Program-made: the position numbers and the translations under genes
DNA from: an uncultured Eubacteriales bacterium
Lineage (GTDB): Bacteria; Bacillota; Clostridia; Oscillospirales; CAG-272
Length of the DNA stretch: 64,000 bases
NCBI GenBank assembly: GCA_934474225.1
Contig: CAKSLU010000007.1
Coordinates: 5,755 to 69,754 of the forward strand
Reading direction: 5' to 3'
Part shown: positions 6,491 through 59,441 of the stretch, piece by piece
How positions within the stretch are numbered: position 1 is the first letter of the stretch
Layout of the letters: each line of letters opens with the position of its first letter
Notes under the pieces: generated by a model
What the model was told of the DNA's origin: nothing
The model's input: only the letters and a program-made list of their open reading frames with translations
The model's database searches: none

Positions 6491-6495
6491 GGTGA

Positions 6496-8437: not shown

Positions 8438-8495
8438 AGGTTTGTGCGCCTTTTGCACCAACCATCCTCTCAAATTTTCCCGAAAGGAGTCGCGC

Positions 8496-9380: not shown

Positions 9381-9393
9381 GGCGCGCCGTTTC

Positions 9394-9608
9394 GGCTCCC
9401 CTGTGCAAGGGGTGAGCTGTCCGAGACGCGCAGCGTCTCGCGGAGTTTTTCTTCGTCGGCTGAACACCGACGATTTCGCGATGCGAAACCGAAAAACATC
9501 CTGACCGTCAGCGCCTGAGGGGTTGTTTCGTGCTTTTACAATCTGCTTTGCTTTGTAACAATCCCTCCGGCATGCTCCGCATGCCACCTCCCTTTACACA
9601 AGGGAGGC
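9394..9608 (+). repeat. R1 element, long form (subtype a plus inserted hairpin and module X)
   Basis: H1 GGCTCCCCTGTGCAAGGGGTGAGC, then hairpin CGAGACGCGCAGCGTCTCG, then module X (9442-9501). The usual GAGGGGTTGT..ACAATCCCTC / GGCATGCTCCGCATGCC / CCTCCCTTTACACAAGGGAGG follow. Confidence 0.9.
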
Positions 9609-9635
9609 TTAATTTCCACCGAAAGGAGCGACGCC

Positions 9636-10163
9636 ATGCCGCGCAAGATTCACCTGCCGAAAACCGACCTTGTCAAAGCGGTCGTCTACGCCGCCGTCGG
9701 CATTCTGCTCCTGCTGTTTTCCACCGCCTTTCTCCCGGCAACGCGGTGGGCAGTCGTCACACCGAACCTGCTCGTCGCCATGATTTCGCTCCTCGCCTAC
9801 TATGAGGGCGCGGGCTATGCCGGGGTCTTCGGCGTGCTCCTCGGCGCGCTTGCCGCGGGCATCACCGGGCGCGGCGCACTGCTGTCCCCCTTCTTCTACG
9901 GCGCGTTTGCGCTGCTCTGCGCAAGGCTCTATGAGAGCTTTTTCGTGCGCAACTTCTTCGCCTGGCTCAGCTACACGGCGGCAGGCCTTGCCGTCACCGG
10001 GCTGTACGGGCTGTTTTACGCCGTCTCGGCATGGGACATGCCGCTCGACGCCGCGCTGCTCCGCGACGCGCTCGGCACCTTTCTCCTCTCCCTTGTGCTG
10101 TCCCTCCCGCTCTATCGCTTTTTCGGTTTCCTGCGCAGAAAAACCGACCTGAAACTCGGATAA
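9636..10163 (+). CDS. mreD: rod shape-determining protein MreD (by position and topology)
   Basis: 175-aa polytopic membrane protein lying between mreC and the PBP2 gene. Sequence-level recognition is weak. Confidence 0.65.
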   Translation: MPRKIHLPKTDLVKAVVYAAVGILLLLFSTAFLPATRWAVVTPNLLVAMISLLAYYEGAGYAGVFGVLLGALAAGITGRGALLSPFFYGAFALLCARLYESFFVRNFFAWLSYTAAGLAVTGLYGLFYAVSAWDMPLDAALLRDALGTFLLSLVLSLPLYRFFGFLRRKTDLKLG

Positions 10164-10193
10164 TCCCCCGCATTTTGCAGAAAGGAGCCAAAC

Positions 10194-12958: not shown

Positions 12959-13088
12959 TGCGCAGCATCACGCCGTTTGCGGCAGCGCCGCAACTTCATT
13001 TGCGCAAGCAACTCCCTCCCTTTTGCAAAAAAATGATTGCATTTGCCCCGCGCGTGGATTATAATATATTATTATGATGTTTTCTTTC

Positions 13089-13202
13089 GGCTCCCCTGTG
13101 CAAGGGGAGCTGTCACCGATAGGTGACTGAGGGGTTGTTCCTTGGCTATGTAACAATCCCTCCGCCGCCGTTCGGCGGCACCTCCCTTTGCACAAGGGAG
13201 GC
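13089..13202 (+). repeat. R1 five-hairpin element, subtype a
   Basis: GGCTCCCCTGTGCAAGGGGAGC / GTCACCGATAGGTGAC / GAGGGGTTGT..ACAATCCCTC / GCCGCCGTTCGGCGGC / CCTCCCTTTGCACAAGGGAGG. Confidence 0.9.
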
Positions 13203-13265
13203 TCCATTCCTCCCCCCCGTTCTAACCTTAAAAAATCTATCTATATATACAGTGAGGATTTCAAA

Positions 13266-15974: not shown

Positions 15975-15991
15975 GGATTTGTACATCAAAA

Positions 15992-16025
15992 AGCAGCTTC
16001 AACCTTGGTTGAAGCTGCTTTTTTA
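15992..16025 (+). terminator. Rho-independent terminator after the aminotransferase gene
   Basis: Hairpin AGCAGCTTCAACC-TTGG-TTGAAGCTGCT followed by T6. An A-run precedes it, so it may work in both directions. Confidence 0.8.
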
Positions 16026-16040
16026 CGATGTTGGCGGCGC

Positions 16041-16197
16041 GTAGTGGGCGAATCGCCGCAAAACGCGGCGGGAGACAAGCCCCCGCCCTACGGCAAAACG
16101 GTTTTCCATGCGCAAAACCCATACCAAACCTGTAGGGGCGACCATTGGTCGCCCGTTTTTGCTCTGTGCACAGCGGGCGACCGATGGTCGCCCCTAC
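16041..16197. repeat. REP/BIME-like cluster including a REPIN-like hairpin
   Basis: GTAGTGGGCGAATCGCC (16041-16057), GCGGCGGGAGACAAGCCCCCGCCCTAC (16065-16091), a 40-nt linker, and the inverted doublet GTAGGGGCGACCATTGGTCGCCCG..CGGGCGACCGATGGTCGCCCCTAC (16132-16197). Confidence 0.88.
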
Positions 16198-16236
16198 AAG
16201 TATGCAAAGAAATTGCTCTGCGGATCCGTCTCCACG

Positions 16237-16262
16237 CAAAAAAAGCCGCCCGGTGGGCGGCT
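16237..16262 (-). terminator. Rho-independent terminator of ackA
   Basis: On the minus strand AGCCGCCCACCGGGCGGCT is followed by T7. It lies about 17 nt after the ackA stop. Confidence 0.8.
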
Positions 16263-16278
16263 TTTTGTCTATCTTCTG

Positions 16279-17558: not shown

Positions 17559-17697
17559 GAAGGCGCGCACATATTTTTGAAAGAAGGGTGAAAATTTTCC
17601 CGCCGCGCTTGCGACGCCGCCGGAAAAGTGGTAAAATGGGAGGGAGAGAAATGGAGTTTTGGCTTCCCTATCCTTGCACGGGGCACAGCGCGCTTTC

Positions 17698-17810
17698 GGC
17701 TCCCCTGTGCAAGGGGAGCTGCCGCCGAATGGCGGCTGAGGGGTTGTATCTTTGCTCTGTAACAATCCCTCCGTCGGCTACGCCGACACCTCCCTTTGCA
17801 CAAGGGAGGC
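17698..17810 (+). repeat. R1 five-hairpin element, subtype a
   Basis: H2 is GCCGCCGAATGGCGGC and H4 is GTCGGCTACGCCGAC; H1, H3 and H5 are as in the other a-type copies. Confidence 0.9.
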
Positions 17811-17815
17811 TTTAT

Positions 17816-17895
17816 GCGGCGGGAGGCAGACGGTGCCCTACGGTGTGTACACAGTACCCGCAAATCCGGTAGGGGTCGGCGCCCTCGACGACCCG
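17816..17895. repeat. REP-like head-to-head doublet
   Basis: GCGGCGGGAGGCAGACGGTGCCCTAC, a 27-nt linker (GGTGTGTACACAG..), then GTAGGGGTCGGCGCCCTCGACGACCCG. Confidence 0.85.
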
Positions 17896-20255: not shown

Positions 20256-20268
20256 GATGTCTGCCTTT

Positions 20269-20428
20269 GGCTCCCCTGTGTAAGGGGTGAGCTGTACGAG
20301 ACGCGATGCGTTTAGGCTCCCCTGTGCAAGGGGAGCTGTCACCGTCAGGTGACTGAGGGGTTGTATCTGTGCCATGTAACAATCCCTCCGCCGCCGTTCG
20401 GCGGCACCTCCCTTTACACAAGGGAGGC
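20269..20428 (+). repeat. Partial long-form 5' segment (20269-20314) fused to a full R1 subtype a (20315-20428)
   Basis: GGCTCCCCTGTGTAAGGGGTGAGCTGTACGAGACGCGATGCGTTTA, then a complete element with H2 GTCACCGTCAGGTGAC and H4 GCCGCCGTTCGGCGGC. Confidence 0.88.
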
Positions 20429-20448
20429 GAAGATAGCCCAGCACGATT

Positions 20449-20525
20449 GCGGCGGGAGCGAGCCCCCGCCCTACGGTGTGCACATAGTTCCCGCTGTTCC
20501 GTAGGGGCGATTCATGAATCGCCCG
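20449..20525. repeat. REP-like head-to-head doublet
   Basis: GCGGCGGGAGCGAGCCCCCGCCCTAC, a 26-nt linker (GGTGTGCACATAG..), then GTAGGGGCGATTCATGAATCGCCCG. Confidence 0.85.
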
Positions 20526-21059: not shown

Positions 21060-21075
21060 GTGCGAATGCATTTTA

Positions 21076-21211
21076 GGCTTCCCCGTTGGGGAAGCTGGCG
21101 CGTAGCGCCTGATGAGGGATTGCACAAAGCAAAACATCGCGCCATGCTGTGCCGGCTGCCTGCATGCCCTCATCCCCCGCCTACGGCGGTACCTTCCCCA
21201 CCGGGGAAGGC
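21076..21211 (+). repeat. R1 five-hairpin element, subtype c
   Basis: GGCTTCCCCGTTGGGGAAGC / GGCGCGTAGCGCC / GATGAGGG..CCCTCATC / CCGCCTACGGCGG / CCTTCCCCACCGGGGAAGG. Confidence 0.88.
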
Positions 21212-21231
21212 TTGGTTAGATGCGCAAGGTG

Positions 21232-21255
21232 CGGGCGACCGATGGTCGCCCCTAC
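21232..21255 (-). repeat. Single REP-like unit
   Basis: The plus strand reads CGGGCGACCGATGGTCGCCCCTAC, which is GTAGGGGCGACCATCGGTCGCCCG on the minus strand. Confidence 0.8.
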
Positions 21256-28905: not shown

Positions 28906-32127
<3,222 letters not shown>

Positions 32128-32128
32128 T

Positions 32129-32235
32129 CAGCCCCCTCGGTGAGGGGGCTGTCACCGATAGGTGACTAGGGGAGTTTTGCAGAGAGCAAGACTCCTTCCG
32201 TCGGCTTCGCCGACACCTCCCTCAACGAGGGAGGT
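32129..32235 (+). repeat. R1 five-hairpin element, subtype b
   Basis: CAGCCCCCTCGGTGAGGGGGCTG / GTCACCGATAGGTGAC / GGAGTTTTGC..AGACTCC / GTCGGCTTCGCCGAC / CCTCCCTCAACGAGGGAGG. Confidence 0.88.
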
Positions 32236-32259
32236 AAAAGGAGTAGTCTGCGCACGGTT

Positions 32260-32458
32260 GCGGCGGGAGCAAGCCCCCGCCCTACGGTGGAGTGGGGACA
32301 GAGTTCGCCTTCCCCGGCGGGGGAAGGTGGCGAGCTTGCCTCGTCGGATGAGGCGTTGCCGCATCTCATGCGGCGAACACGGCGGGAGCGAGCCCCTGCC
32401 CTACGGCATGTAGAAAATCTTTGCTAACCTGTAGGGACCGGCGTCCGGGGCGGTCCGG
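32260..32458. repeat. REP-like units plus a degenerate c-type R1 fragment
   Basis: GCGGCGGGAGCAAGCCCCCGCCCTAC (32260-32285). Degenerate fragment CCTTCCCCGGCGGGGGAAGG..GATGAGG.. (about 32304-32372). ACGGCGGGAGCGAGCCCCTGCCCTAC (32379-32404), a 26-nt linker, then GTAGGGACCGGCGTCCGGGGCGGTCCGG (32431-32458). Confidence 0.75.
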
Positions 32459-34777: not shown

Positions 34778-34931
34778 GGCGTCCCTTGGGGGAAGGCTAA
34801 GACGCGGCGGGAGCAAGCCCCCGCCCTACGGTGTGTAGAAACGCTTTGCAAACTCGGTAGGGGTCGGCGCCTCGACGACCCGCAATCGTGCGCAATCCAA
34901 TTTCGGCTCCCCTGTAGGCGAAGATAGATTC
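34778..34931. repeat. REP-like doublet flanked by an orphan c-type hairpin and an internally deleted R1
   Basis: GGCGTCCCTTGGGGGAAGGC (34778-34797). GCGGCGGGAGCAAGCCCCCGCCCTAC (34804-34829), a 27-nt linker, then GTAGGGGTCGGCGCCTCGACGACCCG (34857-34882). TTCGGCTCCCCTGTAGGCGAAGATAG (about 34905-34930) joins the left arm of H1 directly to the usual 3' flank of H5. Confidence 0.75.
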
Positions 34932-38699: not shown

Positions 38700-38807
38700 G
38701 TAGGGGCGACCATCGGTCGCCCGCCTGCACGATGGCAAAAGCGGGCGACCAATGGTCGCCCCTACGGTTTGTGCGGAGGTTTATGCATACCTGTAGGGAC
38801 CGGCGTC
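38700..38807. repeat. REPIN-like hairpin plus a truncated REP unit
   Basis: GTAGGGGCGACCATCGGTCGCCCG..CGGGCGACCAATGGTCGCCCCTAC (38700-38765). GTAGGGACCGGCGTC (38793-38807) is cut off where the R1 5' flank ATTTTCGG begins. Confidence 0.85.
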
Positions 38808-38813
38808 ATTTTC

Positions 38814-38927
38814 GGCTCCCCTGTGTAAGGGGAGCAGTCACCGTCAGGTGACTGAGGGGTTGTATCTTTACTCTGTAACAATCCCTCCGCCGTCATTCGA
38901 CGGCACCTCCCTTTACACAAGGGAGGC
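38814..38927 (+). repeat. R1 five-hairpin element, subtype a
   Basis: H1 is GGCTCCCCTGTGTAAGGGGAGC, H2 is GTCACCGTCAGGTGAC and H4 is GCCGTCATTCGACGGC; H3 and H5 are canonical. Confidence 0.9.
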
Positions 38928-38967
38928 TTTTCCCCCCCCACATTTTCTACGAAAGGACGGTGCCCCC

Positions 38968-42554: not shown

Positions 42555-42571
42555 AAAATCAATGTATACCG

Positions 42572-42740
42572 GTAGGGGTCGGCGCCTCGACGACCCGCAC
42601 CAACCAAAGCAAAAACGGACCGTCGAGGACGCCGGTCCCTACAAAAGTTACATCGGTACGGTTGCGGGCGACGGGTGGTCGCCCCTACGGTAATGTGGGG
42701 ACTGTGTACACACCGTAGGGCGGGGGCTTGCTCCCGCCGC
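42572..42740. repeat. REP/BIME-like cluster (inverted relative to all other clusters)
   Basis: GTAGGGGTCGGCGCCTCGACGACCCG (42572-42597), CGGACCGTCGAGGACGCCGGTCCCTAC (42616-42642), CGGGCGACGGGTGGTCGCCCCTAC (42665-42688), a 26-nt linker, then GTAGGGCGGGGGCTTGCTCCCGCCGC (42715-42740). Confidence 0.88.
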
Positions 42741-42749
42741 TCTATCTGA

Positions 42750-42947
42750 GCCTCCCCCCCGGCAAAGGGAGGTGTCATGCGAAGCATGACGGAGGGATTG
42801 TTGCATGGCAAAGAAACAACCCCTCAGTCACCTATCGCCAGGATGTTTTTCGGTTTCGCTCGCGAAATCGTCGGTGTTCAGCCGACGAAGAAAAACTCCG
42901 CGAGACGCATCGCGTCTCGTACAGCTCACCCCTTGCACAGGGGAGCC
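42750..42947 (-). repeat. R1 long form in reverse orientation (module X at 42841-42899)
   Basis: The plus strand reads the reverse complement: GCCTCCC..GGGAGGT / ..GGAGGGATTGT..ACAACCCCTCAG / GTCACCTATCGCC / module X rc / CGAGACGCATCGCGTCTCG / GCTCACCCCTTGCACAGGGGAGCC. Confidence 0.88.
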
Positions 42948-42981
42948 GAAATCCCCCACAACATCTGAAAGGAGAACGGCC

Positions 42982-44367: not shown

Positions 44368-45221
44368 ACTGGAAGTACATCAAGAGTTTTCTCATCCTGC
44401 TTGTCGTCCTTGTAGATATCCTGCTCGTCAAATTCTGCTACGACTACTACATGGCGCGCGAGTTTACCGCGCGCGAGACGGCGGAGGACGCCGTCGCCGT
44501 GCTGCAAGCCGGCGGCATCGAAGTCTCCGCCGACCTGCTTGCCGTGCGGGCGGACAGCGCGCCCGCGCGCCGCTGCGCCTACACGCGCGAGGACTATGCG
44601 CGCCTCGTGTTCGGGATTCTCTGCGGCAAGGACGCGGACGGTTTCTTTCTCCTGCCGGACGGCATCCGCGCCGTGACGGCGGACGGCGATGTCGCCCGCC
44701 TCGGCTACGACTTCTCGCTCGAATTTGTCGCCGCCGGGCGTGACGCCGCCGTTGTCGAGGCGGCGTATGCCAAAGGCTATGCCGCAACATCGGACACCGG
44801 GGCGGTGCGCCACGCGCTGGAGGGGCTTCTCGGGCTGCCCGAGGGCGCGGCAAAGAACTTCCCGGCGACCACCGCCGACGGCTATGTTTTCTTCACGCGC
44901 ACCGCGGCGGCGGACGGTATTCCGCTCGCGCTCGACGACTGCGTGTTCGCCTTTCTCGGCACCGAACTGGTCTACGCGCGCGGCAGTTACCTCTTCCTCG
45001 CCACCGAGGCGGAGGACGCCGAACCTCTTTTGACCCGCATCAATATACTGCTTAGTGAGCGGCGGCGCGGCGCAGTGGGCACTGTGCGCGAAATTTCGCT
45101 CTGCTATGCGCCCTATGAGGACGCCGTGGAGGGAACGCTCTGGCTGTTCCCCGCCTACCGCGTGACCTATGCGGACGGCAGCGTCTCGGTCGTGCAGGCG
45201 CAAAGCGGCGAAAAATATTGA
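44364..45221 (+). CDS. Membrane-anchored hypothetical protein (positional analogue of YycI)
   Basis: GTG 44364 overlaps the preceding stop (GTGA). N-terminal TM helix SFLILLVVLVDILLV; about 285 aa. Confidence 0.55.
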   Translation: MNWKYIKSFLILLVVLVDILLVKFCYDYYMAREFTARETAEDAVAVLQAGGIEVSADLLAVRADSAPARRCAYTREDYARLVFGILCGKDADGFFLLPDGIRAVTADGDVARLGYDFSLEFVAAGRDAAVVEAAYAKGYAATSDTGAVRHALEGLLGLPEGAAKNFPATTADGYVFFTRTAAADGIPLALDDCVFAFLGTELVYARGSYLFLATEAEDAEPLLTRINILLSERRRGAVGTVREISLCYAPYEDAVEGTLWLFPAYRVTYADGSVSVVQAQSGEKY

Positions 45222-45304
45222 CGATGCCCCTGCATTATGGTATACTGAATTGTTGGGCGGAAGCCCTTGTTTGCCCCACCGAATTTTCGAGAGGAATCTG
45301 AGCT

Positions 45305-46558
45305 ATGGACAAAATCATCATCAACGGCGGAACCCCGCTTGTCGGCACAGTCGAGATCAGCGGCGCGAAAAATGCGGCGCTGCCGGTGCTCGTCGGCACG
45401 GTGCTCGTCGGCGACCGCTGCGTCATTGAAAATGTACCCGAGATTCTCGATGTGGACCTGACGCTGGAGATCCTCGAAAAGATGGGCGCCAAGGTCAAGC
45501 GTGACCACACCACGGTGGAAATTGACACGCGCTATGTACAGCCGGGGCGTTCGCCCTACGAGCTGGTCAGCCGCATGCGCGGCTCGACCTACCTCATCGG
45601 CGCGGAACTCGGCAGATTCAATTACGCGCGCGTCGGCTCGCCCGGCGGCTGCGACTTCGGCGTGCGCCCCATCGATCAGCACATCAAGAGTTTTGAGGCG
45701 CTCGGCGCCACGGTTTCGGTGCGGGGCGGCTATGTCGAGGCAAAGGCAGACGCGCTGGTCGCCGCCGAGGTCTATTTTGACATGGTTTCGGTCGGTGCAA
45801 CGGTCAACGCCATCTTAGCATCGGTCTTTGCCGAAGGCACCACCGTGCTTGAAAACGCGGCGCGCGAGCCGCACATCGTCGACCTTGCCAACTTCCTCAA
45901 CACCTGCGGCGCGCGCATTGTCGGCGCGGGCACGGACACCATCAAAATCAAGGGCGTGGAAAAGCTGCACGGCTCGACCTACGCCATCATTCCCGACATG
46001 ATTGAGGCAGGCACTTTCATGTGCGCCGCGGCGGCAACCGGCGGCAATGTCAAAATCAACAATGTCATTCCGAAGCATTTGGATTCCATTTCGGCAAAGC
46101 TCACCGAGATGGGCGTTTTCGTCGAAGAACTGGACGATGCCGTGATCGTGCGCCGCGACGGCGTGATGAAGGGCATCAATGTCAAGACGCAGCCTTACCC
46201 CGGCTTCCCCACGGATATGCAGCCGCAGATGACCGCGCTGCTCTGCTTTGCAGACGGCACAGGCCGCGTGACCGAGGGCGTGTGGGACAACCGCTTCCGC
46301 TATGTGGAGGAGCTGCGCAAGACCGGCGCCGTCATCGACATCGCAGGCAAAACGGCAACCGTCCGCGGCAGCACCGCGCTTGTCGGCGCGCCGATGCGCT
46401 CGGTCGATTTGCGTGCGGGCGCGGCGATGGTCATCATGGGGCTTGCCGCCAGCGGCAGAACCGAGATCACCGACATCCACACCATCGAGCGCGGCTATGA
46501 CAACATCGTCCGCAAGCTCCGCGACCTCGGCGCGGATATCCGCAAAGTATCATACTGA
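45305..46558 (+). CDS. murA: UDP-N-acetylglucosamine 1-carboxyvinyltransferase
   Basis: 417 aa with N-terminus MDKIIINGG..L.G.V.ISGAKNAALP and catalytic loop SPGGCDFGVRPIDQH. Confidence 0.95.
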   Translation: MDKIIINGGTPLVGTVEISGAKNAALPVLVGTVLVGDRCVIENVPEILDVDLTLEILEKMGAKVKRDHTTVEIDTRYVQPGRSPYELVSRMRGSTYLIGAELGRFNYARVGSPGGCDFGVRPIDQHIKSFEALGATVSVRGGYVEAKADALVAAEVYFDMVSVGATVNAILASVFAEGTTVLENAAREPHIVDLANFLNTCGARIVGAGTDTIKIKGVEKLHGSTYAIIPDMIEAGTFMCAAAATGGNVKINNVIPKHLDSISAKLTEMGVFVEELDDAVIVRRDGVMKGINVKTQPYPGFPTDMQPQMTALLCFADGTGRVTEGVWDNRFRYVEELRKTGAVIDIAGKTATVRGSTALVGAPMRSVDLRAGAAMVIMGLAASGRTEITDIHTIERGYDNIVRKLRDLGADIRKVSY

Positions 46559-46573
46559 ATCAGTCGAAAAGAA

Positions 46574-46602
46574 AAAACCGCCGTTCGGCGGTTTTCTTTT
46601 TT
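46574..46602 (+). terminator. Rho-independent terminator of murA
   Basis: Hairpin AAAACCGCC-GTTC-GGCGGTTTT followed by CTTTTTT. Confidence 0.8.
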
Positions 46603-46615
46603 GTATCGGTCATTT

Positions 46616-46787
46616 GCGGCGGGAGACAGACGGCGCCCTACGGTATGTACACGGTTACGGCTATTCCGTAGGGGCGACCATTGGTCGCCCGCTTAACGGG
46701 GTGCGAAAACGGGCGACCAATGGTCGCCCCTACAGGTGTGTGCGCCTTTTGTGCCATCCGGTAGGGGTCGGCGCCCTCGACGACCCG
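46616..46787. repeat. REP/BIME-like cluster with REPIN-like hairpin
   Basis: GCGGCGGGAGACAGACGGCGCCCTAC (46616-46641), a 26-nt linker, GTAGGGGCGACCATTGGTCGCCCG..CGGGCGACCAATGGTCGCCCCTAC (46668-46733), then GTAGGGGTCGGCGCCCTCGACGACCCG (46761-46787). Confidence 0.88.
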
Positions 46788-46836
46788 CCCCAACCAAAGC
46801 AAAACACGGTGTGTGCGTGCCATTCGACTGCCCTGC

Positions 46837-47034
46837 CTAATCCCGCTTATCGGTGCGTTCCAGCAGATAGTCCACGGTCACACCGAAATAATCCGCGATG
46901 CGGCAAAGCTCGGCATAACCAGCCTCATGCGCGCCGGTCTCGTACCGCGAAATCGTATTCTGGCTCATATTCAAATCCAGTCCCAGTTTCAACTGGGTGA
47001 TGCCCCGCTCCCGACGAAGTTCCCGTAAACGCAT
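46837..47034 (-). CDS. XRE-family HTH transcriptional regulator
   Basis: 65 aa: MRLRELRRERGITQLKLGLDLNMSQNTISRYETG...VTVDYLLERTD. ATG 47034 was chosen. Confidence 0.85.
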   Translation of the reverse strand: MRLRELRRERGITQLKLGLDLNMSQNTISRYETGAHEAGYAELCRIADYFGVTVDYLLERTDKRD

Positions 47035-47093
47035 AATCCTTCCTCTCCGCCGCCGCAAGCCACAGCAATTCAAAAATAGTTCTTGACTTTAGT

Positions 47094-47371
47094 GTACCAT
47101 AAGCGATACGAACGCGCAAGCCTGCGGGCGGATATTTTGCGCGCTTTTCGCATTGTCCGCCTCGGAATATCGGTATATTCCGTCGTTGTCCGCAGCAAAA
47201 ATCATCACAAAATCTCTCGCCCGCAGGTGCTACACAGTTTTGACCGAGCGGATTTTTGCCCGGGCGAGAAAAAAGACGCAGGGAATACGCCGGTATTCCG
47301 GGGGTCTTTTGACGATGCACGGACGGAAAGACGCCGGTCAAAACCTTGTGTGTTCGCATCGCTTATGGTAC
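47094..47371. repeat. 27-bp inverted repeat pair flanking an AT-richer non-coding segment
   Basis: GTACCATAAGCGATACGAACGCGCAAG (47094-47120) against the reverse complement of 47345-47371: 24 of 27 positions match. Two GGAATA..TATTCC hairpins lie in the interior (47163-47182 and about 47282-47299). Confidence 0.7.
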
Positions 47372-47483
47372 TCAATTTGGTATACTAAACATATCCCGAA
47401 ATGGTATATATCGCTCGGGGTGCGGATGCCGAACGCTTTTCGATGTTTTGCTTACGGTGATTCCGCACAATTTCCATGCAAAA

Positions 47484-47510
47484 AGGAAGTGCCGCGGCAC
47501 TTCCTTTTTG
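47484..47510. terminator. Bidirectional Rho-independent terminator
   Basis: Hairpin AGGAAGTGCC-GC-GGCACTTCCT flanked by A5 and T5. Confidence 0.7.
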
Positions 47511-47529
47511 CCTTTCCGACGCTGCCCCC

Positions 47530-47558
47530 TTTACAGGATGCCCGAAATGTGATATAAT
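47530..47558 (+). promoter_or_regulatory. SigA promoter (extended -10) of the MBL-fold hydrolase gene
   Basis: TTTACA, 17 nt, then TG-A-TATAAT. Confidence 0.65.
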
Positions 47559-47627
47559 ACTATATTCAGTGAAAATCAACTTTTTTCTATGGAACTTCTG
47601 CGGCAGCTTTTGGACGGGGAGGATAAA

Positions 47628-48504
47628 ATGACCGATTATTACCGCTTCGGCGACGCACAAATCTACCGACTCGTCGAGACGCACGACGCCGGCGACATCA
47701 TCCGGCGCATTGTCCCCGCTATGACGGCGGCGGCGATCCGCCCCTATGCGGCGCGCTTCCCCGCCTGCGCCGACAGCGACGGGCATGTGCTCGCCCCGGT
47801 GCAGAGTTTTCTGCTGCTTGCCGATGGGCGGCGCATCCTCATTGACACCGGCATCGGCAACGGCAAGCCGCTCTGCGGCGACTGGGGCGGTCTTGACACC
47901 GACTGGCTCGACCGTCTGACGGCAGTGGCGCCGCCCGAGACGATTGACACCGTGATCTGCACGCATCTGCACGCCGACCATGTCGGCTGGAACACGCGGC
48001 TGCAAAACGGCGCATGGACGCCGACCTTCCCGCATGCGGCATACGATTTGCCCGCCGGAGACCTTGCCGACCTGCGTGCCCGCCTGCCGGAACTTTCCCC
48101 GGACGATGTCTGCGTGCTGCGCGATTCGATCGCGCCCGTGCTGACAGCCGGAGCGGCAGTCCCCGTGCCGGACGGCGAACGGGCAATTACCGACACGGTG
48201 TCCCTCGTCCCGACGCCGGGACACACGCCGCACCACCTCGCCGTGCGCGTCACGGCGGGCGGGCGCGCCCTGCTGTTCTGCGGCGATCTTTTCTACCATG
48301 TCTGTCAGGCGGAACACCCCGCGTGGGGTGCGGAAGAAAACCCGCTGCTGCTGGCCACGCGCCTGCGCGTGCTGGACGAGGCGGCGGCGCACGGCAGCCT
48401 GCTTTTCTTCGGTCACATGCCCTATCCGCTGCGCATCACGGCGGATGCGGACGGATACACGGCACATCCCGTGTGCAAAACGAACCTCTTGAAAGGAGAC
48501 AACG

Positions 48505-48515
<11 letters not shown>
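47628..48515 (+). CDS. MBL-fold metallo-hydrolase
   Basis: HxHxDH motif ([11 protein letters not shown]). ATG 47628 follows GGGGAGG. ATG 47589 in the ORF track lacks an RBS. Confidence 0.85.
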
Positions 48516-50471
<1,956 letters not shown>

Positions 50472-50472
<1 letters not shown>

Positions 50473-50694
50473 TTTTCGGCTCCCCTGTGCAAATTTTCGG
50501 CTCCCCTGTGCAAGGGGTGAGCTGTACGAGACGCGATGCGTCTCGCGGAGTTTTTCTTCGTCGGCTGAACACCGACGATTTCGCGAGCGAAACCGAAAAA
50601 CATCCTGGCGATAGCCGTCTGAGGGGTTGTTCCGTGGCTCTGTAACAATCCCTCCGTCGCCGTTCGGCGACACCTCCCTTTGCACAAGGGAGGC
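50472..50694 (+). repeat. R1 long form (50499-50694, module X 50547-50605) preceded by a perfect 21-nt tandem duplication of its 5' end
   Basis: ATTTTCGGCTCCCCTGTGCAA occurs at 50472-50492 and again at 50493-50513. The first copy starts within the uvrB stop codon. Confidence 0.9.
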
Positions 50695-50703
50695 TCAGAT
50701 AGA

Positions 50704-50819
50704 GCGGCGGGAGCAGACGGCGCCCTACGGTGTGTGCACAGTTCCCCTCATTTCGTAGGGGCGACCATTGGTCGCCCGCCTATACAAAGCGGAAACGGGC
50801 GACCAATGGTCGCCCCTAC
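50704..50819. repeat. REP-like doublet plus REPIN-like hairpin
   Basis: GCGGCGGGAGCAGACGGCGCCCTAC (50704-50728), a 26-nt linker, then GTAGGGGCGACCATTGGTCGCCCG..CGGGCGACCAATGGTCGCCCCTAC (50755-50819). Confidence 0.88.
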
Positions 50820-50889
50820 AGTTTTGCAATTCATTCATTTTCGCATCCCATTTCACTCCCCCTACTTTTTCACATGAAAGGGTATTACC

Positions 50890-53724
50890 ATGGCAAAGGA
50901 TATCATCATCAAAGGCGCGCGGGTCAACAACCTCAAGAACATTGACCTCACGATTCCGCGCGACAAACTGACCGTGCTGACCGGCCTCTCGGGCAGCGGC
51001 AAATCCTCACTGGCGTTTGACACGCTCTACGCCGAGGGTCACCGCCGCTTTGTCGAGTCGCTGTCCTCCTACGCGCGGCAGTTCCTCGGGCAGATGGACA
51101 AGCCCGACGTCGACTCGATTGAGGGGCTGTCCCCCGCAATCGCCATCGACCAGAAGACCACCTCGAAAAACCCGCGCTCAACTGTGGGCACGGTCACCGA
51201 AATCTACGACTACCTGCGCCTCTTATACGCGCGCTGCGGCGTACCGCACTGCCCGGTCTGCGGCAAGGAAATCAAGCAGCAGACCGTGGACTCCATCATC
51301 GACAGCATCCTTGCGATGCCGGAAGGCACGCGCTTTATGGTGCTCGCCCCCATCGTGCGAAACGCCAAGGGCACGCACGAAAAGGTGCTTGCCGACGCGC
51401 GGCGCAGCGGCTATGCCCGCGTGCGCGTGGACGGCAGCCTCTACGACCTCACGGAGACCATTTCGCTTGACAAAAACCTCAAGCACACGGTCGAAATCGT
51501 GGTGGACCGCCTCATTTGCCGCCCCGACGCGCACACCCGCATCGGCGACTCGGTGGAGACCGCCGTCGCCCTGACCGACGGGCTTGTGCGCATCGTGACC
51601 GTGCCGCGCGAGGAAGGCACCGCCGAGGAGGAGCGCGACTATTCGCTCAAATACGCCTGCGAGGAACACGGCATCAGCTTCGGCGAGCTGGAACCCCGCA
51701 TGTTCTCGTTCAACGCGCCGGACGGCGCCTGCCCGCGCTGCGCGGGACTGGGCGCGCTGACCCGCGTCTCCGAGAAAAAGCTCATGCCCGACAAGAGCCT
51801 GTCCCTGCGCGAGGGCGGCATCGCCTGCAACGGGTTCAAGACGCTCGAGGAGGAGAGCTGGAACGGCCCGCTGATTGAAGCCGTGGGCAAAAAATTCGGC
51901 TTCACGATGGATTTGCCGCTGGAAAAATACACCCGCACTGCGATGAGCGCGCTGCTCTACGGCACGGGCAGGGAAACCTACACGATTACGCGCTATTTCG
52001 GCGGCACGGCGCACCACCAGACCACGACCTTTGAGGGCATCATCCCGATGATTGACCGCCGCCGCGAATCCTACGGGCAGGAATACTACGACAGCCTGCT
52101 TGAGGAGCAGGTCTGCCCCGAATGCGGCGGCGGCCGTCTGAACAAAATGATGCTGGCGGTCACGGTGGGCGGCAAGAACATCTACGAGCTTTGCCTGATG
52201 CCGATTGACAAGATGCTCGACTTTGTCACAAAACTGGAACTGGACAACGAGCACCGCCAGATTGCCGCCGAAATCGTCAAGGAGATCCGCGCGCGCCTCG
52301 GCTTTCTCGTCAGCGTGGGCCTCGAATACCTGAACCTCGCGCGCCGCGCGGGCACGCTCTCGGGCGGCGAGGCGCAGCGCATCCGCCTGGCGACGCAGAT
52401 TGGCTCGTCGCTCGTCGGCGTGCTCTACATCCTCGACGAGCCGAGCATCGGTCTGCACCAGCGCGACAACGACAAGCTGATTGCCACGCTGAAAAAGCTG
52501 CGCGACCTCGGCAACACGGTGGTCGTCGTCGAGCACGACGAGGACACCATGCGCGCCGCGGATTATCTCGTGGACATCGGCCCCGGCGCGGGCATCCACG
52601 GCGGCTACATCTGCGCGGCGGGCACGCCCGCCGAGGTGGCGAAGAACAAGAAGTCCATCACCGGCGACTACCTTGCCGGACGGCGGAAAATCGAAGTCCC
52701 CGCCGCCCGCAGACCGGGCAACGGCGCGTTTCTGACCGTGCACGGCGCGCGGGAGCACAACCTCAAAAACATTGATGTCACCTTCCCGCTCGGCAAGTTC
52801 ATCGCCGTCACCGGCGTCTCGGGCAGCGGCAAGTCCTCGCTTATCAATTCGGTGCTCTATGAGAGCCTCGCCGCCACGCTGAACCGCGCGGTCACCTTCC
52901 CCGGCGAGCACGACAGCATCGAAGGCGTCGGCGCGCTGGACAAGGTCATCGCCATCGACCAGAGCCCCATCGGGCGCACGCCGCGCTCCAACCCCGCGAC
53001 TTACACCGGCGTGTTCTCCGAGATTCGCGAGTTGTTTGCCAAGACCCGCGAGGCGAAGGCGCGCGGCTACAAGGCGGGGCGCTTCTCGTTCAACACCAAG
53101 GGCGGCAGATGCGAAGCCTGCGAGGGCGACGGCGTGAAGTGCATCGAGATGCACTTTCTGCCCGATGTGTATGTCAAGTGCGACGTCTGCGGCGGCAGAC
53201 GGTACAACCGCGAGACGCTCGAGGTGCACTACAAGGAAAAGAACATCTACGAGGTGCTGGAGATGACCGTGGAGGAGGGCGTCGAGTTCTTCTCGGGTGT
53301 CCCCTCGGTCAAGCGCAAGCTGCAGACGCTCTGCGATGTCGGGCTCGGCTATGTCAAAATCGGGCAGTCCTCCACCACGCTCTCGGGCGGCGAAGCGCAG
53401 CGCGTGAAGCTGGCGACCGAGCTTGCCCGCCGCTCCACCGGGCGCACGGTCTACATCCTCGATGAGCCGACCACGGGTCTGCACAGTGAGGATGTGGCAA
53501 AGCTGATTGCGGTGCTCAACCGCCTCGTGGACGCGGGCAACACCGTCATTGTCATCGAGCACAACCTCGACATGATCAAGGTTGCCGACCACATCATCGA
53601 CCTCGGCCCGGAGGGCGGCGAAGGCGGTGGCAGAATCGTCGCCGAAGGCACGCCCGAGGAAGTCGCCGAAGTCGAGGGGTCTTATACGGGGCAATATCTG
53701 CGGAGCAAGCTTGCAGAGAAGTGA
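50890..53724 (+). CDS. uvrA: excinuclease ABC subunit A
   Basis: 944 aa with two ABC modules (GLSGSGKSS and GVSGSGKSS), LSGGE signatures and CxxC zinc modules. Confidence 0.96.
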
Positions 53725-53747
53725 GGGAAGAAGAGGCAGTCCGCCTG

Positions 53748-53824
53748 CCGCTATTCCGTAGGGGCGACCATTGGTCGCCCGTCCGTACCTAAGCGTTAAG
53801 CGGGCGATGGGTGGTCGCCCCTAC
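53748..53824. repeat. REPIN-like hairpin; copy 1 of a 77-nt perfect direct repeat
   Basis: CCGCTATTCCGTAGGGGCGACCATTGGTCGCCCGTCCGTACCTAAGCGTTAAGCGGGCGATGGGTGGTCGCCCCTAC is identical to 54078-54154. Confidence 0.92.
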
Positions 53825-53843
53825 AAAGTCAGTGCGTGCTTTC

Positions 53844-54029
53844 GGCTCCCCTGTGTAAGGGGAGCTGTACGAGACGCAAAGCGTTTCTTAGGCTTCCCCA
53901 ATGGGGAAGCTGTCGCCGTAGGCGACTGATGAGGGATTGATGAAAGCCAAACACCGCGCCATGCTGTGCCGGCTGCCTGCATGCCCTCATCCACCGCTAA
54001 CGCGGTCCCCCTTCCCCACCGGGGAAGGC
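53844..54029 (+). repeat. Partial long-form 5' segment (53844-53890) fused to a full R1 subtype c (53891-54029)
   Basis: GGCTCCCCTGTGTAAGGGGAGCTGTACGAGACGCAAAGCGTTTCTTA, then GGCTTCCCCAATGGGGAAGC / GTCGCCGTAGGCGAC / GATGAGGG..CCCTCATC / CCGCTAACGCGG / CCTTCCCCACCGGGGAAGG. Confidence 0.88.
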
Positions 54030-54035
54030 TTGGTT

Positions 54036-54154
54036 GCGGCGGGAGCAAGCCCCCGCCCTACGGTGTGTACACATTTTCCGCTATTCCGTAGGGGCGACCA
54101 TTGGTCGCCCGTCCGTACCTAAGCGTTAAGCGGGCGATGGGTGGTCGCCCCTAC
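54036..54154. repeat. REP-like doublet; contains copy 2 of the 77-nt direct repeat
   Basis: GCGGCGGGAGCAAGCCCCCGCCCTAC (54036-54061), a 26-nt linker, then the REPIN-like hairpin at 54088-54154. Confidence 0.9.
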
Positions 54155-54181
54155 GGGTTTGTTCGACTTTTATGCAATCCG

Positions 54182-54289
54182 GTAGGGGGCATGGCGACCG
54201 GAACGCAAGCGTTCCTCAGGAGTTTTTCTTCGTCGGCTGAACACCGACGATTTCGCTACGCGAAACCGAAAAACATCCTCGACGACCCG
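54182..54289. repeat. REP unit interrupted by inserted hairpin plus module X
   Basis: GTAGGGG | GCATGGCGACC GGAACGCAAGCGTTCC .. module X (54219-54278) | TCGACGACCCG. The two outer parts equal the ends of the intact unit GTAGGGGTCGGCGCCCTCGACGACCCG. Confidence 0.8.
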
Positions 54290-54346
54290 TTTTGCCTTGG
54301 TGGATGCTGGGTTTGTGCGCGTTCCTGCCACATCCCCCATTCCACG

Positions 54347-54382
54347 CAAAAAGCCGCGCGCCAGCAGGCGCGCGGCTTTTTT
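54347..54382 (-). terminator. Rho-independent (bidirectional) terminator after the THUMP methyltransferase gene
   Basis: Hairpin AGCCGCGCGCC-(AGC)-GGCGCGCGGCT flanked by A5 and T6, adjacent to the stop codon at 54384. Confidence 0.8.
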
Positions 54383-54383
54383 C

Positions 54384-55514
54384 TCACCCCTCGGGGCGGT
54401 CAAACTTGAAATACTGGTAGAGATAGCACGGAATCATGCCGTTGTAGAGCTTGCGCACCTTGTCGGCGCGTCTGCCGTACAGCCGCTCAAACCGCTCACT
54501 GGAAGTCAGAATATAGACCTGCCAGGGTTCGAGCGAACGGAAATGCTGCCCCATGCGGGCATAGAGCCGCTCCACCTCGTCGGCGCTGCCCATGCGCTCG
54601 CCATACGGCGGGTTGCAGACGATCGTGCCGCGCCGCCCGCCCGTGCGGATGGTGCAGGCGTCGGCAACGAAGGTCTTGACCACATCCGAGACGCCCGCGC
54701 GCGCCGCATTGTCGGCGGCAAGTTGCACCATCTCGGGGTCGATGTCCGACGCATACGCCTCAAAAGCGGTCGGGCGGATCGCCGCCTTCGCCTCGGCGCG
54801 CGCCTCTGCCCAAAGCTCGGGCGGGGCGACGGCAAATTCCTCCGCGGCAAAGCGGCGGAACAGCCCGGGCGCCTGATTTTTCATAATCATCGCCGCCTCG
54901 ATGGCAATCGTGCCGCTGCCGCAGAACGGGTCCCACAGCAGCACATTCTCGCGCGGGCGGGAATTGAGCGCCAGCGCCGCCGCCAGCGTCTCGCGCAGGG
55001 GCGCAGCCCCCGCAATGGCGCGGTACCCGCGCTTGTGCAGCGGCACGCCCGATGTGTCAATCATCAGCGTGGCGACATCCTTCAGAATAAAGAATTCAAT
55101 CTGATATTTCGTCTTGCTCTCGGGGAACCAGCACATGCCGTACTCGTTGTCCAGCCGCTTGGCGACCGCCTTTTTCACGATGCTTTGGCAGTCGGGAATC
55201 GAGAACAGCTTGCTCTTCACCGCGTGCCCCTTGACCGGGAAGGCGTCCTCCCGCCCGATGAAGCGCTCCCATTCGATGGCTTTTGTCCCCTCAAACAGCT
55301 CGCCGAAGGTGCGCGCGCGAAAACTCCCCATCTTGATATACAGCCGCTCGGCGCAGCGCAGATTGATGTTGCAGCGGGCTATCGCCGCCTCGTCGCCGAT
55401 AAAGCTGACTCTGCCGTCAATCGTCTCGGTGCGGCGATAGCCGAGGCGGTCGATTTCCTCGCCGAGGAAATGCTCAAGCCCGAACAGGCAGGTTGCTACA
55501 AATTCGATAACCAT
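54384..55514 (-). CDS. THUMP-domain class I SAM-dependent RNA methyltransferase (RlmL/YpsC-like)
   Basis: 376 aa with an N-terminal THUMP region and methyltransferase motifs DPFCGSGT and NPPYG. Confidence 0.85.
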   Translation of the reverse strand: MVIEFVATCLFGLEHFLGEEIDRLGYRRTETIDGRVSFIGDEAAIARCNINLRCAERLYIKMGSFRARTFGELFEGTKAIEWERFIGREDAFPVKGHAVKSKLFSIPDCQSIVKKAVAKRLDNEYGMCWFPESKTKYQIEFFILKDVATLMIDTSGVPLHKRGYRAIAGAAPLRETLAAALALNSRPRENVLLWDPFCGSGTIAIEAAMIMKNQAPGLFRRFAAEEFAVAPPELWAEARAEAKAAIRPTAFEAYASDIDPEMVQLAADNAARAGVSDVVKTFVADACTIRTGGRRGTIVCNPPYGERMGSADEVERLYARMGQHFRSLEPWQVYILTSSERFERLYGRRADKVRKLYNGMIPCYLYQYFKFDRPEG

Positions 55515-55589
55515 TGTTTATGACGCCGCTCCGGCTTTCCGCATCTGCCGGCGACGGCGCACCCTCCAAACTTCCTCTTTTTTGCGGCA

Positions 55590-56036
55590 TTACGGCTTCT
55601 TGTTCAGCCGCTCCAACTCTTCCATAAAGGTCGCCACATCCTTAAACTCGCGGTACACCGAGGCGAAGCGCACATAGGAGACCGCGTCCAGCGCCTTGAG
55701 CTTGTCCATGATGATTTCGCCGATTTCGGTGGTCGTGATTTCGGCGCGCAGAGAGTTTTGCAGCTCGCTCTCGATCTCGCGGGCCAGTGCGGCGGTGTCC
55801 ACCGGGCGCTTCTGGCACGCCTTCATCAGCCCGCTCTCCAACTTCATGCGGTCGAAAAACTCCTTTGAGCCGTCCTTTTTGATGACGACAAGCTGCACCG
55901 AATCAATCACCTCATAGGTTGTGAAACGGCGGCGGCAGGACAGGCATTCGCGGCGACGGCGGATGCTCGTGTTGTCGCCGACGGGGCGGGAATCAATGAC
56001 CTTGCTCTCCGCAAAGCCGCAGTTGGGACATTTCAT
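55590..56036 (-). CDS. nrdR: transcriptional repressor NrdR
   Basis: Zinc ribbon MKCPNCG...[12 protein letters not shown] followed by an ATP-cone. ATG 56036 follows GGAG. Confidence 0.95.
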
Positions 56037-56054
56037 GGAGTTTCTCCTATAAAA

Positions 56055-56070
56055 ACACAATATATAGTGT
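56055..56070. promoter_or_regulatory. NrdR box (16-bp palindrome) in the nrdR leader
   Basis: Minus strand reads ACACTATATATTGTGT, matching the NrdR-box consensus acaCwAtATaTwGtgt. A degenerate second box (56086-56101) starts 31 bp away, the canonical spacing. Confidence 0.7.
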
Positions 56071-56074
56071 TTTT

Positions 56075-56104
56075 ATTATAGCATAGTCCCTATATCCTTG
56101 TAAA
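56075..56104 (-). promoter_or_regulatory. Candidate SigA promoter of nrdR
   Basis: Minus strand reads TTTACA, 18 nt, then TG-C-TATAAT. The NrdR box lies just downstream of the -10 box. Confidence 0.55.
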
Positions 56105-56124
56105 TAGGAAATGCAAAAAAACTG

Positions 56125-56153
56125 TTGACAAATGCGCGCATCTGTGTTATAAT
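56125..56153 (+). promoter_or_regulatory. Consensus SigA promoter of tRNA-Pro
   Basis: TTGACA, 17 nt, then TG-T-TATAAT. The -10 box ends about 26 nt upstream of the tRNA 5' end. Confidence 0.8.
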
Positions 56154-56179: not shown

Positions 56180-56256
56180 CGGGATGTAGCACAGCTTGGT
56201 AGTGCGCTTGGTTCGGGACCAAGAGGTCGGGTGTTCGAATCACCTCATTCCGACCA
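56180..56256 (+). tRNA. tRNA-Pro (anticodon CGG), CCA encoded
   Basis: Manual cloverleaf: acceptor CGGGATG/CATTCCG, D arm GCAC/GTGC, anticodon stem CTTGG/CCAAG with loop TTCGGGA, T arm GGGTG-TTCGAAT-CACCT, discriminator A, then CCA. Confidence 0.9.
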
Positions 56257-56291: not shown

Positions 56292-56308
56292 GCGTTCGGG
56301 GTGCTATG

Positions 56309-56439
56309 TGCTCCCCTGTGTAAGGGGAGCTGTCACCGTAGGTGACTGAGGGGTTGTTTTTTGCCTTTCAATCATCTTTTACCATGCAACAATCCCTCCG
56401 GCATGCTTTGCATGCCACCTCCCTTTACACAAGGGAGGC
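56309..56439 (+). repeat. R1 five-hairpin element, subtype a (enlarged H3 loop)
   Basis: TGCTCCCCTGTGTAAGGGGAGC / GTCACCGTAGGTGAC / GAGGGGTTGT..(about 38 nt)..ACAATCCCTC / GGCATGCTTTGCATGCC / CCTCCCTTTACACAAGGGAGG. Confidence 0.88.
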
Positions 56440-56443
56440 GAAT

Positions 56444-56469
56444 GCGGCGGGAGCGAGCCCCCGCCCTAC
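56444..56469 (-). repeat. Single REP-like unit
   Basis: The plus strand reads GCGGCGGGAGCGAGCCCCCGCCCTAC, followed by the usual GGTGTGTGCGC linker start. Confidence 0.85.
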
Positions 56470-59015: not shown

Positions 59016-59165
59016 GTCTATTTTAGGCTTCCCCATTGGGGGAAGGCTTGGATGCGGGGGAGACAGACGGCGCCCTACGGTGTGTGCGCATCTTTCGCCA
59101 TTCTGTAGGGACCGGCGTCCCCGACGGTCCGATTTGCTTTGATGGGTGCGGACCGCCCCAGACGC
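59016..59165. repeat. Orphan c-type hairpin plus REP-like doublet with REPIN-like hairpin
   Basis: GGCTTCCCCATTGGGGGAAGGC (about 59016-59039). GCGGGGGAGACAGACGGCGCCCTAC (59044-59068), a 26-nt linker, then GTAGGGACCGGCGTCCCCGACGGTCCG..GCGGACCGCCCCAGACGCCGGTCCCTAC (59095-59165). Confidence 0.85.
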
Positions 59166-59193
59166 CGGTCCCTACAAAGTTTGTGCGTGATTT

Positions 59194-59427
59194 GGCTCCC
59201 CTGTGCAAGGGGTGAGCTGTACGAGACGCGATGCGTCTCGCGGAGTTTTTCTTCGTCGGCTGAACACCGACGATTTCGCGAGCGAAACCGAAAAACATCC
59301 CGGCGGTGACTGAGGGGTTGTTCCGTGCTTTTGTAACAATCCCTCCGGCGCGCGTGATGTTTCCCGCAAGGGAAACTCATTAGGAACGCTTGCGTTCCGG
59401 GCCACACTCCCTTTACACAAGGGAGGC
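59194..59427 (+). repeat. R1 long form (module X 59242-59300) with expanded H4 region
   Basis: The H1 / CGAGACGCGATGCGTCTCG / module X / H3 parts are canonical. H4 is replaced by GTTTCCCGCAAGGGAAAC plus GGAACGCTTGCGTTCC hairpins. H5 is CTCCCTTTACACAAGGGAGG. Confidence 0.88.
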
Positions 59428-59441
59428 TTATTACAACACAC

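Follow-up and report, generated by a model that had tools for sequence, protein, structure and literature searches.

The intergenic DNA of the 64-kb stretch analysed here (hereafter the window; GC 62%), which belongs to a gut Clostridia genome of the Oscillospirales type, carries arrays of hairpin-forming repeats with a fixed order and a common orientation. These arrays are a Clostridia variant of the kind formed by repetitive extragenic palindromes (REPs), bacterial interspersed mosaic elements (BIMEs) and REP-associated tyrosine transposases (RAYTs), with added hairpin modules, a strong polarity that is independent of transcription, and fast turnover. The repeats crowd the approximately 8.5 kb of intergenic DNA in the window, where about 45 GTAGGG-hairpin units were found. 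The one-way orientation pattern, first noticed in a sequence-only reading of this DNA, was confirmed; the polarity is strong and its cause unproven.

All REP-like units in the window consisted of a GTAGGG head followed by a hairpin, and four types were distinguished: REPc (GTAGGGCGGGGGCTYGCTCCCGCCGC, of which the GCGGCGGGAG..CCCTAC unit of the sequence-only reading is the reverse complement), REPg (GTAGGGGCGACCATTGGTCGCCCG), REPt (GTAGGGGTCGGCGCCCTCGACGACCCG) and REPa (GTAGGGACCGGCGTCCTCGACGGTCCG). REPt and REPa are separated by compensatory stem changes (GGGTCG/CGACCC and GGACCG/CGGTCC, respectively). Each type thus combines a 5' GTAG foot with a short imperfect palindrome, and the units are present in high copy number at overwhelmingly extragenic positions, as is characteristic of REPs associated with RAYTs. 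For REPc, 11 matches with at most two mismatches were found, versus 0.11 expected from shuffled sequence, and three further copies containing indels (at 16065, 50702 and 59053) brought the total to 14. Inverted REPg-REPg and REPt-REPa pairs were observed. In addition, REPc was joined head-to-head to REPg, REPt or REPa through a conserved, GGTGTGTACACAGTTCCCGCTATTCC-like linker, 26-27 nt long at 9 of the 12 REPc-REP junctions. Such inverted pairs with characteristic linkers are the organisation of BIMEs and of REP doublets forming hairpins (REPINs).

Two larger modules accompany the REPs. R1 is a module of about 115 nt with five hairpins (H1-H5) and three subtypes (a, b and c); it is pseudo-palindromic, H5 being roughly the reverse complement of H1. 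R2 is a three-hairpin module of about 90 nt, which was found nested between H1 and H2 of R1 at 9390-9609, 50473-50695 and 59190-59428, and on the minus strand at 42838-42924. R2 also interrupted the loop of a REPt once in the window (54182-54290), as it did in another locus (L020, around 420-500). Modules of these arrays therefore insert into each other's loops or junctions.

Of the 14 REPc copies, 13 had their GTAGGG on the minus strand and only that at 42715 had it on the plus strand (binomial p = 0.0018). R1 was likewise one-sided, with 16 copies in plus and 1 in minus orientation (p = 2.7e-4); units of at least 20 bits were counted, and strands were called with an nhmmer model, which matches both strands and scores the true one about twice as high. 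As had been claimed, orientation was maintained regardless of gene strand: the 13 co-oriented REPc copies were located between minus/minus (4), plus/plus (2), convergent (5) and divergent (2) genes, and the inverted copy between plus/plus genes. The order R1, inverted REPc, 26-27 nt linker and forward REP recurred in full at 17694-17895, 20311-20525, 50473-50819 and 53890-54154, and in truncated form at 34778-34882 and 59030-59175; at 32125-32285 and 56305-56469, which had been put forward as further examples, R1 and REPc are present and are followed by no GTAGGG unit. The reverse complement of 42560-42960 aligned with 50480-50780 through R1 (including its R2 insert), the junction CTCAGATAGAGC, REPc, the linker and REPg, so that the block at 42572-42947 represents a whole array in mirror image.

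The proposal that the array behaves as a single unit did not survive comparison with a genome of about 94% identity, in which orthologous sites carry different modules. Two human-gut metagenome loci (L158 and L191), the sole syntenic loci among those fetched, were collinear with window positions 19-10952 and 44796-56133 at 91-96% identity. At 6494-6637, the window carries R1c and L158 carries R1a; at 8320-8437, a REPc-REPt-REPa array in the window corresponds to R1a in the relative; and at 2856-3017, R1b is matched by an R1c-like module, upstream of a conserved REPc. The R2 copies inside R1 at 9390-9609 and 50473-50695 were absent from the relative, and a REPc/REPg/REPt array with a small gene (46616-47480) was represented there by a lone R1a. 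Every R1 copy in both loci was oriented like those of the window. Because different modules occupy orthologous sites, the arrays are best described as combinatorial mosaics of fixed order and polarity, not as a single element that cannot be divided, and turnover at the fixed intergenic sites is rapid. Within the last of these sites, a small helix-turn-helix-like open reading frame (ORF; 46837-47073) and about 700 nt around it were absent from L191.

To the orientations in the window we added a sample of about 120 R1-bearing metagenome loci related to it. In these, R1 was oriented with unidirectional flanking genes in 25 cases and against them in 25. Single REPc copies were divided 20 to 15 in the corresponding comparison. 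Orientation thus does not depend on transcription in either the window or the larger sample. Neighbouring R1 copies outside the window agreed in 27 of the 34 distinct pairs (p = 8e-4), dereplicated by the intervals between copies, and in 21 of the 28 pairs at least 500 nt apart (p = 0.013). Orientation is therefore coherent regionally, over tens of kilobases.

The identity of the GTAGGG units as REPs of the RAYT-associated kind, which had also been proposed, is well supported by their GTAG-headed hairpins, inverted pairs and fixed linkers, and by RAYT homologues tied to REPc and REPt in related genomes. Scanning the GTDB species genomes for the REPc pattern returned at least 117 blocks of 8 kb, and nearly all of those listed came from Oscillospiraceae, Faecousia, Acutalibacteraceae or "Eubacteriales" gut metagenome-assembled genomes (MAGs). 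The REPc 28-mer GCGGCGGGAGCAAGCCCCCGCCCTACGG was identical among dozens of the listed Oscillospirales MAG species, with GC contents of 41-62% and unrelated flanks, and often occurred in tail-to-tail doublets in other MAGs. This 28-mer is far more conserved between genera than REPs usually are. Single REPc copies avoided divergent intergenic regions (6, versus 21 in convergent ones), as is known of REPs (PMC3733652).

Three of the 8-kb REPc blocks carried a RAYT homologue (NF047646, E = 4.8e-18; PF01797) with the motifs MPNHVHAII (HUH) and SYYDHIIRN (Y). In one of these (L017), the gene (5592-6077, minus strand) lies about 140 nt from five head-to-tail REPc copies (5254-5449) with a 42-nt period and near-identical 14-nt spacers, which looks like local REP amplification beside the enzyme gene. 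Reading this tandem as clustered regularly interspaced short palindromic repeats (CRISPR) was ruled out by the near-identity of the "spacers", four out of five being the same. In another (L092), REPc lies about 100 nt upstream of the RAYT gene. The third (L053) has a RAYT gene whose own ORF (5342-5836) includes a REPc-like stretch in forward orientation, which encodes VVGQGLAPAV, as well as the exact 28-mer in inverted orientation, which encodes AAGASPRPT.

Such an in-frame inverted REP pair brackets the HUH-coding segment in the RAYT ORFs of L053, L210, L251 and L252. In L210 (ORF 1007-1567), an R1-bearing metagenome contig, an inverted REPt pair occupies the two positions found in L053 and encodes PVGVGAYDDP and DGSSRAPTPT. 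The genes of L251 (4154-4744) and L252 (2979-3569) carry an inverted REPt pair at those positions and no flanking REPs, and their inner REPt is identical to that of the window. A homologue search returned 1192 relatives, some of them named RayT by JGI. VGVGA[LHF]DDP and GSS[RK]APTPT were almost invariant among the 60 listed of the best 120 of these 1192 homologues, one having VGVGT, and the VGVGA.DDP peptide was duplicated or triplicated in some (P0121-P0124 and P0179). In PMC6006769 and PMC3733652, we saw no mention of RAYT genes that contain REPs.

Regarding the origin of the polarity, the mechanistic idea of the sequence-only reading, mobility through single-stranded DNA at replication, is the best available explanation, and is unproven. 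The GTAGGG hairpins (REPc, REPg, REPt and REPa) would be substrates of a RAYT (TnpA-REP, a Y1 HUH enzyme) encoded elsewhere in the genome. REPs are joined head-to-head through the fixed linker of 26-27 nt, and on the REPc side to the GTAG-free modules R1 (a, b or c) and R2; this fixed joining grammar gives the arrays their polarity. The RAYT may cut and rejoin single-stranded DNA, thereby building and remodelling arrays, and the common orientation could arise because this remodelling is confined to one of the template strands of the replication fork, as it is in IS200/IS605. That the arrays are non-autonomous REP/BIME-type mosaics, remodelled as single-stranded DNA by a RAYT and oriented by one template strand at the fork, seems to us an evenly balanced proposition. 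A bolder version, in which a Clostridia-wide RAYT bearing its own in-frame REP pair builds the polar R1-REPc-linker-REP arrays and fork direction writes their orientation, is less likely and is proposed only tentatively.

A number of observations weigh against this replication-based explanation. No RAYT gene was found in the 64-kb window. R1 and R2 lack GTAG, and the tie to RAYT holds for the REP units and not for these modules. Moreover, the replacement of one module by another at a given site could be a templated conversion that preserves orientation. The remaining points concern strand-dependent folding and the relation to replication.

The sequence-only reading had argued that the arrays fold better on one strand. 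Folded as DNA, R1 formed one and the same set of five hairpins on both strands (z of -7 to -8.7), and its plus strand was the more stable, by a small difference of 0.7-1.8 kcal/mol out of about 38. This part of the argument stood; the difference exists because a position of H3 is G-T on one strand and A-C on the other. The G-T pair was present in all subtype-a copies of the window, as had been noted, and in 44 of 45 diverse R1a copies from elsewhere. The argument failed for REPc, since the common variant folded better on the GTAGGG strand (-7.5 versus -6.8 kcal/mol), which is the opposite strand to that of R1 in the composite. For the ACAGACGG variant of REPc at 46615, it was the non-GTAGGG strand that folded better. 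The energy argument for a single preferred strand is therefore weak. Among the 45 R1a copies, H1, H3 and H5 were nearly invariant in sequence; H2 and H4 were hypervariable yet paired, with both sides changed in 17-22 of the 45 sequences at each of six pairs. Since pairing in H2 and H4 is kept despite this variation, the hairpins themselves matter, or are regenerated.

The relation to replication direction was approached through nucleotide skew. In the window, splitting GC/AT skew into replication and coding components gave unstable values near zero. For 77 R1-oriented loci, the replication component of GC skew at third codon positions (GC3) was -0.003 +/- 0.003, and the positive control, the majority gene strand, also gave a value of about 0; the method is therefore uninformative here and provides no evidence against the replication hypothesis. 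Gene-strand bias was weak, with a mean majority fraction of 0.67-0.71 per locus and 53:47 in the window. The latter ratio is weak for a member of the Bacillota, and coding-strand GC3 skew, in the window as in the R1 loci, was strongly negative (b about -0.2).

Contigs spanning dnaA, recovered through DnaA homologues, were poor in R1 and carried divergent copies with low-margin strand calls. In contigs with dnaA-dnaN-recF-gyrB-gyrA, R1 was oriented against the fork in L165 (4/4) and L005 (1/1). Under the composite grammar, the orientation in L165 would place the GTAGGG strand of REPc on the lagging-strand template, like the active strand of IS200/IS605. Three contigs from more distant species, with few and divergent copies, did not fit a clean flip at the origin: L243 had minus and minus to the left of dnaA and plus, plus, plus and minus to the right; L238 had R1 in minus orientation to the left of dnaA and two REPc with GTAGGG on the minus strand to the right, contradicting the polarity of L165; and L239, with dnaA at the start of the contig, had minus, plus and minus. 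When tRNA genes were taken as markers of the leading strand, R1 had the same orientation in 2 cases and the opposite in 5, which is too few to decide, and the window fell on the minority side. Probes with ribosomal, RNA polymerase and elongation-factor genes matched almost no R1-bearing locus. Contigs of R1-rich genomes repeatedly ended just upstream of dnaA (L239, L240, L242 and L250), which suggests that repeats are present in the oriC region; contig L249 appeared to be chimeric.

The most probable alternative is that copies owe their orientation to descent and templated copying and not to replication. Arrays would recombine or undergo gene conversion with one another, through shared H1/H5, REP or flank homology, so that each copy inherits the prior orientation of its site, and occasional DNA inversions would produce exceptions such as 42572-42947. 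The orthologous sites of L158 and L191, with different modules in the same orientation, fit replacement in place; the invariant H1, H3 and H5, between which H2 and H4 vary, could serve as homology arms; and the inverted block is a full mirror of the 50480-50780 array, junction sequence included. The imperfect coherence outside the window (27/34) and the lack of a clean flip on origin-spanning contigs are likewise compatible with it. However, this explanation does not account for how about 30 separate intergenic sites within the 64 kb came to share one orientation at the outset, irrespective of gene direction, and homologous recombination would delete genes between co-oriented repeats or invert them between inverted ones, which predicts more mixing than was seen. 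We consider it unlikely.

Polarity could also be selected for a direction-dependent function of the chromosome, such as that of sequences recognised by translocases or recombination enzymes, or of fork or cruciform barriers, by analogy with FtsK-orienting polar sequences (KOPS), SpoIIIE recognition sequences (SRS) and Chi. A regional polarity that is strong and independent of transcription would be expected of such sites. Conservation points the same way: H1, H3 and H5, including the G-T position, were kept in 44-45 of the 45 R1a copies across samples, and the REPc 28-mer is identical in many genera, with GC contents of 41-62%, which together suggest that a conserved protein recognises them. 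Known polar motifs, however, are short oligomers and not mosaics of 120-400 nt, and arrays that turn over fast between close relatives are unlike a conserved functional site. Neither the skew nor the dnaA contigs showed a link to replication direction, and we regard a chromosomal function as improbable.

Finally, that the arrays act as RNA (terminators, stabilisers of mRNA 3' ends, small RNAs or cis-regulatory structures), with an orientation that follows transcription, is very improbable despite the stable five-hairpin fold of R1, the double compensatory changes in H2 and H4, the conserved G-U-type wobble in H3 and the ability of REPs in other bacteria to stabilise mRNA 3' ends (PMC3733652), because R1 and REPc are divided almost evenly with respect to unidirectional genes, one orientation prevails in all four gene contexts of the window, both strands fold almost equally well, and a conserved promoter-like sequence 5' of R1 was not evident in the aligned copies (no promoter scan was run). 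An RNA-element reading was thus ruled out by the orientation statistics. A search with the Rfam 15 covariance models, at gathering and E-value thresholds, returned nothing for R1, R2 or the REPs, and only tRNA-Pro reached threshold. Sub-threshold matches to MicX (16121-16270) and ar7 (15988-16103) fell on REPg/REPc hairpins and terminators, and are probably spurious and driven by hairpins.

To our knowledge, work on REP/BIME sequences and RAYTs has been almost confined to Proteobacteria, and the way in which REPs spread is still unsettled. Modular hairpin repeats are also represented by the pneumococcal BOX element (boxA-boxB-boxC) and by bacterial miniature inverted-repeat transposable elements. 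R1 resembles these in being modular and pseudo-palindromic, with conserved end modules and variable inner hairpins, and in accepting nested inserts; unlike them, it is physically coupled to GTAG REPs. Neither terminal inverted repeats with a target duplication nor a cognate DDE transposase was seen, although no search aimed at them was made.

The closest known system is that of the E. coli REP/BIME with TnpA-REP (the REPtron; PMC3333891, PMC8266576). Shared features are imperfect palindromes with a 5' GTAG (about 25-27 nt here and 30-40 nt in E. coli; PMC3333891), several REP types per genome, extragenic location in high copy number, REP and inverted REP joined head-to-head or tail-to-tail by linkers of fixed length, and an associated Y1 HUH transposase homologue, here in relatives. 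By contrast, the host here is a Clostridia (Oscillospirales) gut bacterium, the arrays add large GTAG-free hairpin modules (R1 and R2), the composite is strongly and uniformly polar, RAYT homologues were found that hold a REP pair inside the ORF and not flanking it, and one REPc 28-mer recurs unchanged in many genera, in contrast to the usual lineage specificity of REPs. Although a lagging-strand template has been proposed as one possible source of single-stranded DNA for REP/BIME, PMC3333891 and PMC8266576 report no orientation analysis.

In Pseudomonas fluorescens SBW25, ordered arrays of GI and GIII REPs are in forward orientation around 2 Mb and in reverse orientation around 4 Mb, on opposite sides of the chromosome (Bertels and Rainey, PMC3116915). 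The REPg and t/a pairs look like the REPINs of that strain, as do the REPc doublets of other MAGs, but most polar units of the window are heterodimers (REPc with g, t or a) accompanied by R1, and not symmetric doublets. With the IS200/IS605 family (IS608, ISDra2; PMC3971601, PMC6006769), the arrays have in common subterminal hairpins, which in that family are recognised as single-stranded DNA by a Y1 HUH enzyme, an orientation bias independent of transcription, and a similar proposed cause of polarity. In IS200/IS605, orientation bias through lagging-strand single-stranded DNA, by "peel and paste", is established (PMC3971601; Ton-Hoang 2010, as cited in PMC3333891). The present elements differ in being non-autonomous and mosaic, with arrays of 100-500 nt that are non-coding and contain no TnpA of their own between hairpin ends, and in the mixed orientations, with no clean flip, of the dnaA contigs.

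Polar arrays make orientation scorable, which symmetric REPINs cannot do, and the very fast turnover of modules between genomes of about 94% identity constitutes a natural experiment on mobility. The lineage also offers RAYT genes containing their own REP pair and a REP sequence conserved across many genera. Should polarity flip at the origin and the terminus, this would be direct genomic evidence for replication-coupled, RAYT-driven dissemination of REPs; should it not, an orientation that is 95% one-way and blind to transcription would still need another explanation. If orientation is indeed written by the fork, the arrays would form a dense and readable record of replication direction in genomes whose GC skew proved unusable here and whose gene-strand bias was small. 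The bolder reading given above would also provide an instance of a domesticated transposase able to act on, or to be regulated through, substrate hairpins that its own coding sequence contains.

The arrays of the window are listed in Table 1, beginning with the components of the inverted block, whose closest direct counterpart is the array at 50473-50819.

Table 1. Repeat arrays of the window; "inverted" REPc denotes a copy with GTAGGG on the minus strand.
Position	Strand	Feature	
42572-42597	+	REPt (GTAGGGGTCGGCGCCTCGACGACCCG), outer end of the inverted array	
42616-42642	-	REPa, inverted partner of REPt	
42665-42688	-	REPg (GTAGGGGCGACCACCCGTCGCCCG)	
42689-42714	-	26-nt head-to-head linker (GGTGTGTACACAGTCCCCACATTACC on minus strand)	
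42715-42740	+	REPc, sole copy of 14 with GTAGGG on plus strand	
42745-42951	-	R1a with R2 between H1 and H2; sole minus-oriented R1 of 17	
2856-3257	+	R1b, inverted REPc (2992-3017), REPg variant (3058-3082), REPa on minus (3100-3126), R1a (3142-3257)	
6494-6637	+	R1c, solitary	
8320-8437	+	inverted REPc, REPt, REPa on minus; no R1	
9390-9609	+	R1a with R2 insert (no R2 at the orthologous site of L158)	
13085-13203	+	R1a, solitary	
16065-16197	+	inverted REPc, then inverted REPg pair	
17694-17895	+	composite: R1a, inverted REPc, 27-nt linker, REPt	
20266-20525	+	partial R1/R2 head, R1a, inverted REPc, 26-nt linker, REPg variant	
21075-21255	+	R1c, then REPg on minus	
31971-32457	+	R2/R1a fragment, R1b, inverted REPc (32260-32285), R1c-like fragment, inverted REPc (32379-32404), REPa	
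34778-34882	+	truncated composite: R1c H5 stub, inverted REPc, 27-nt linker, REPt	
38700-38928	+	inverted REPg pair, truncated REPa, R1a	
46616-46787	+	inverted REPc, 26-nt linker, inverted REPg pair, REPt	
50473-50819	+	composite: R1a with R2 insert, inverted REPc, 26-nt linker, inverted REPg pair	
53758-54290	+	REPg pair, R1 head stub, R1c, inverted REPc, linker, REPg pair, R2-interrupted REPt (54182-54290)	
56305-56469	+	R1a, then inverted REPc; just downstream of tRNA-Pro (56180-56253, plus strand)	
59030-59428	+	R1c H5 stub, inverted REPc variant, linker, inverted REPa pair, R1a with R2 and a further H4 insert	

Some R1 ends were irregular. The 5' end of R1 (TTTTCGGCTCCCCTGTGCAA) was tandemly duplicated at 50473-50520, as a truncated head followed by a full head, and a similar orphan R1 head was present at 34897-34915. 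These duplicated or orphan heads may be footprints of aborted or partial joining.

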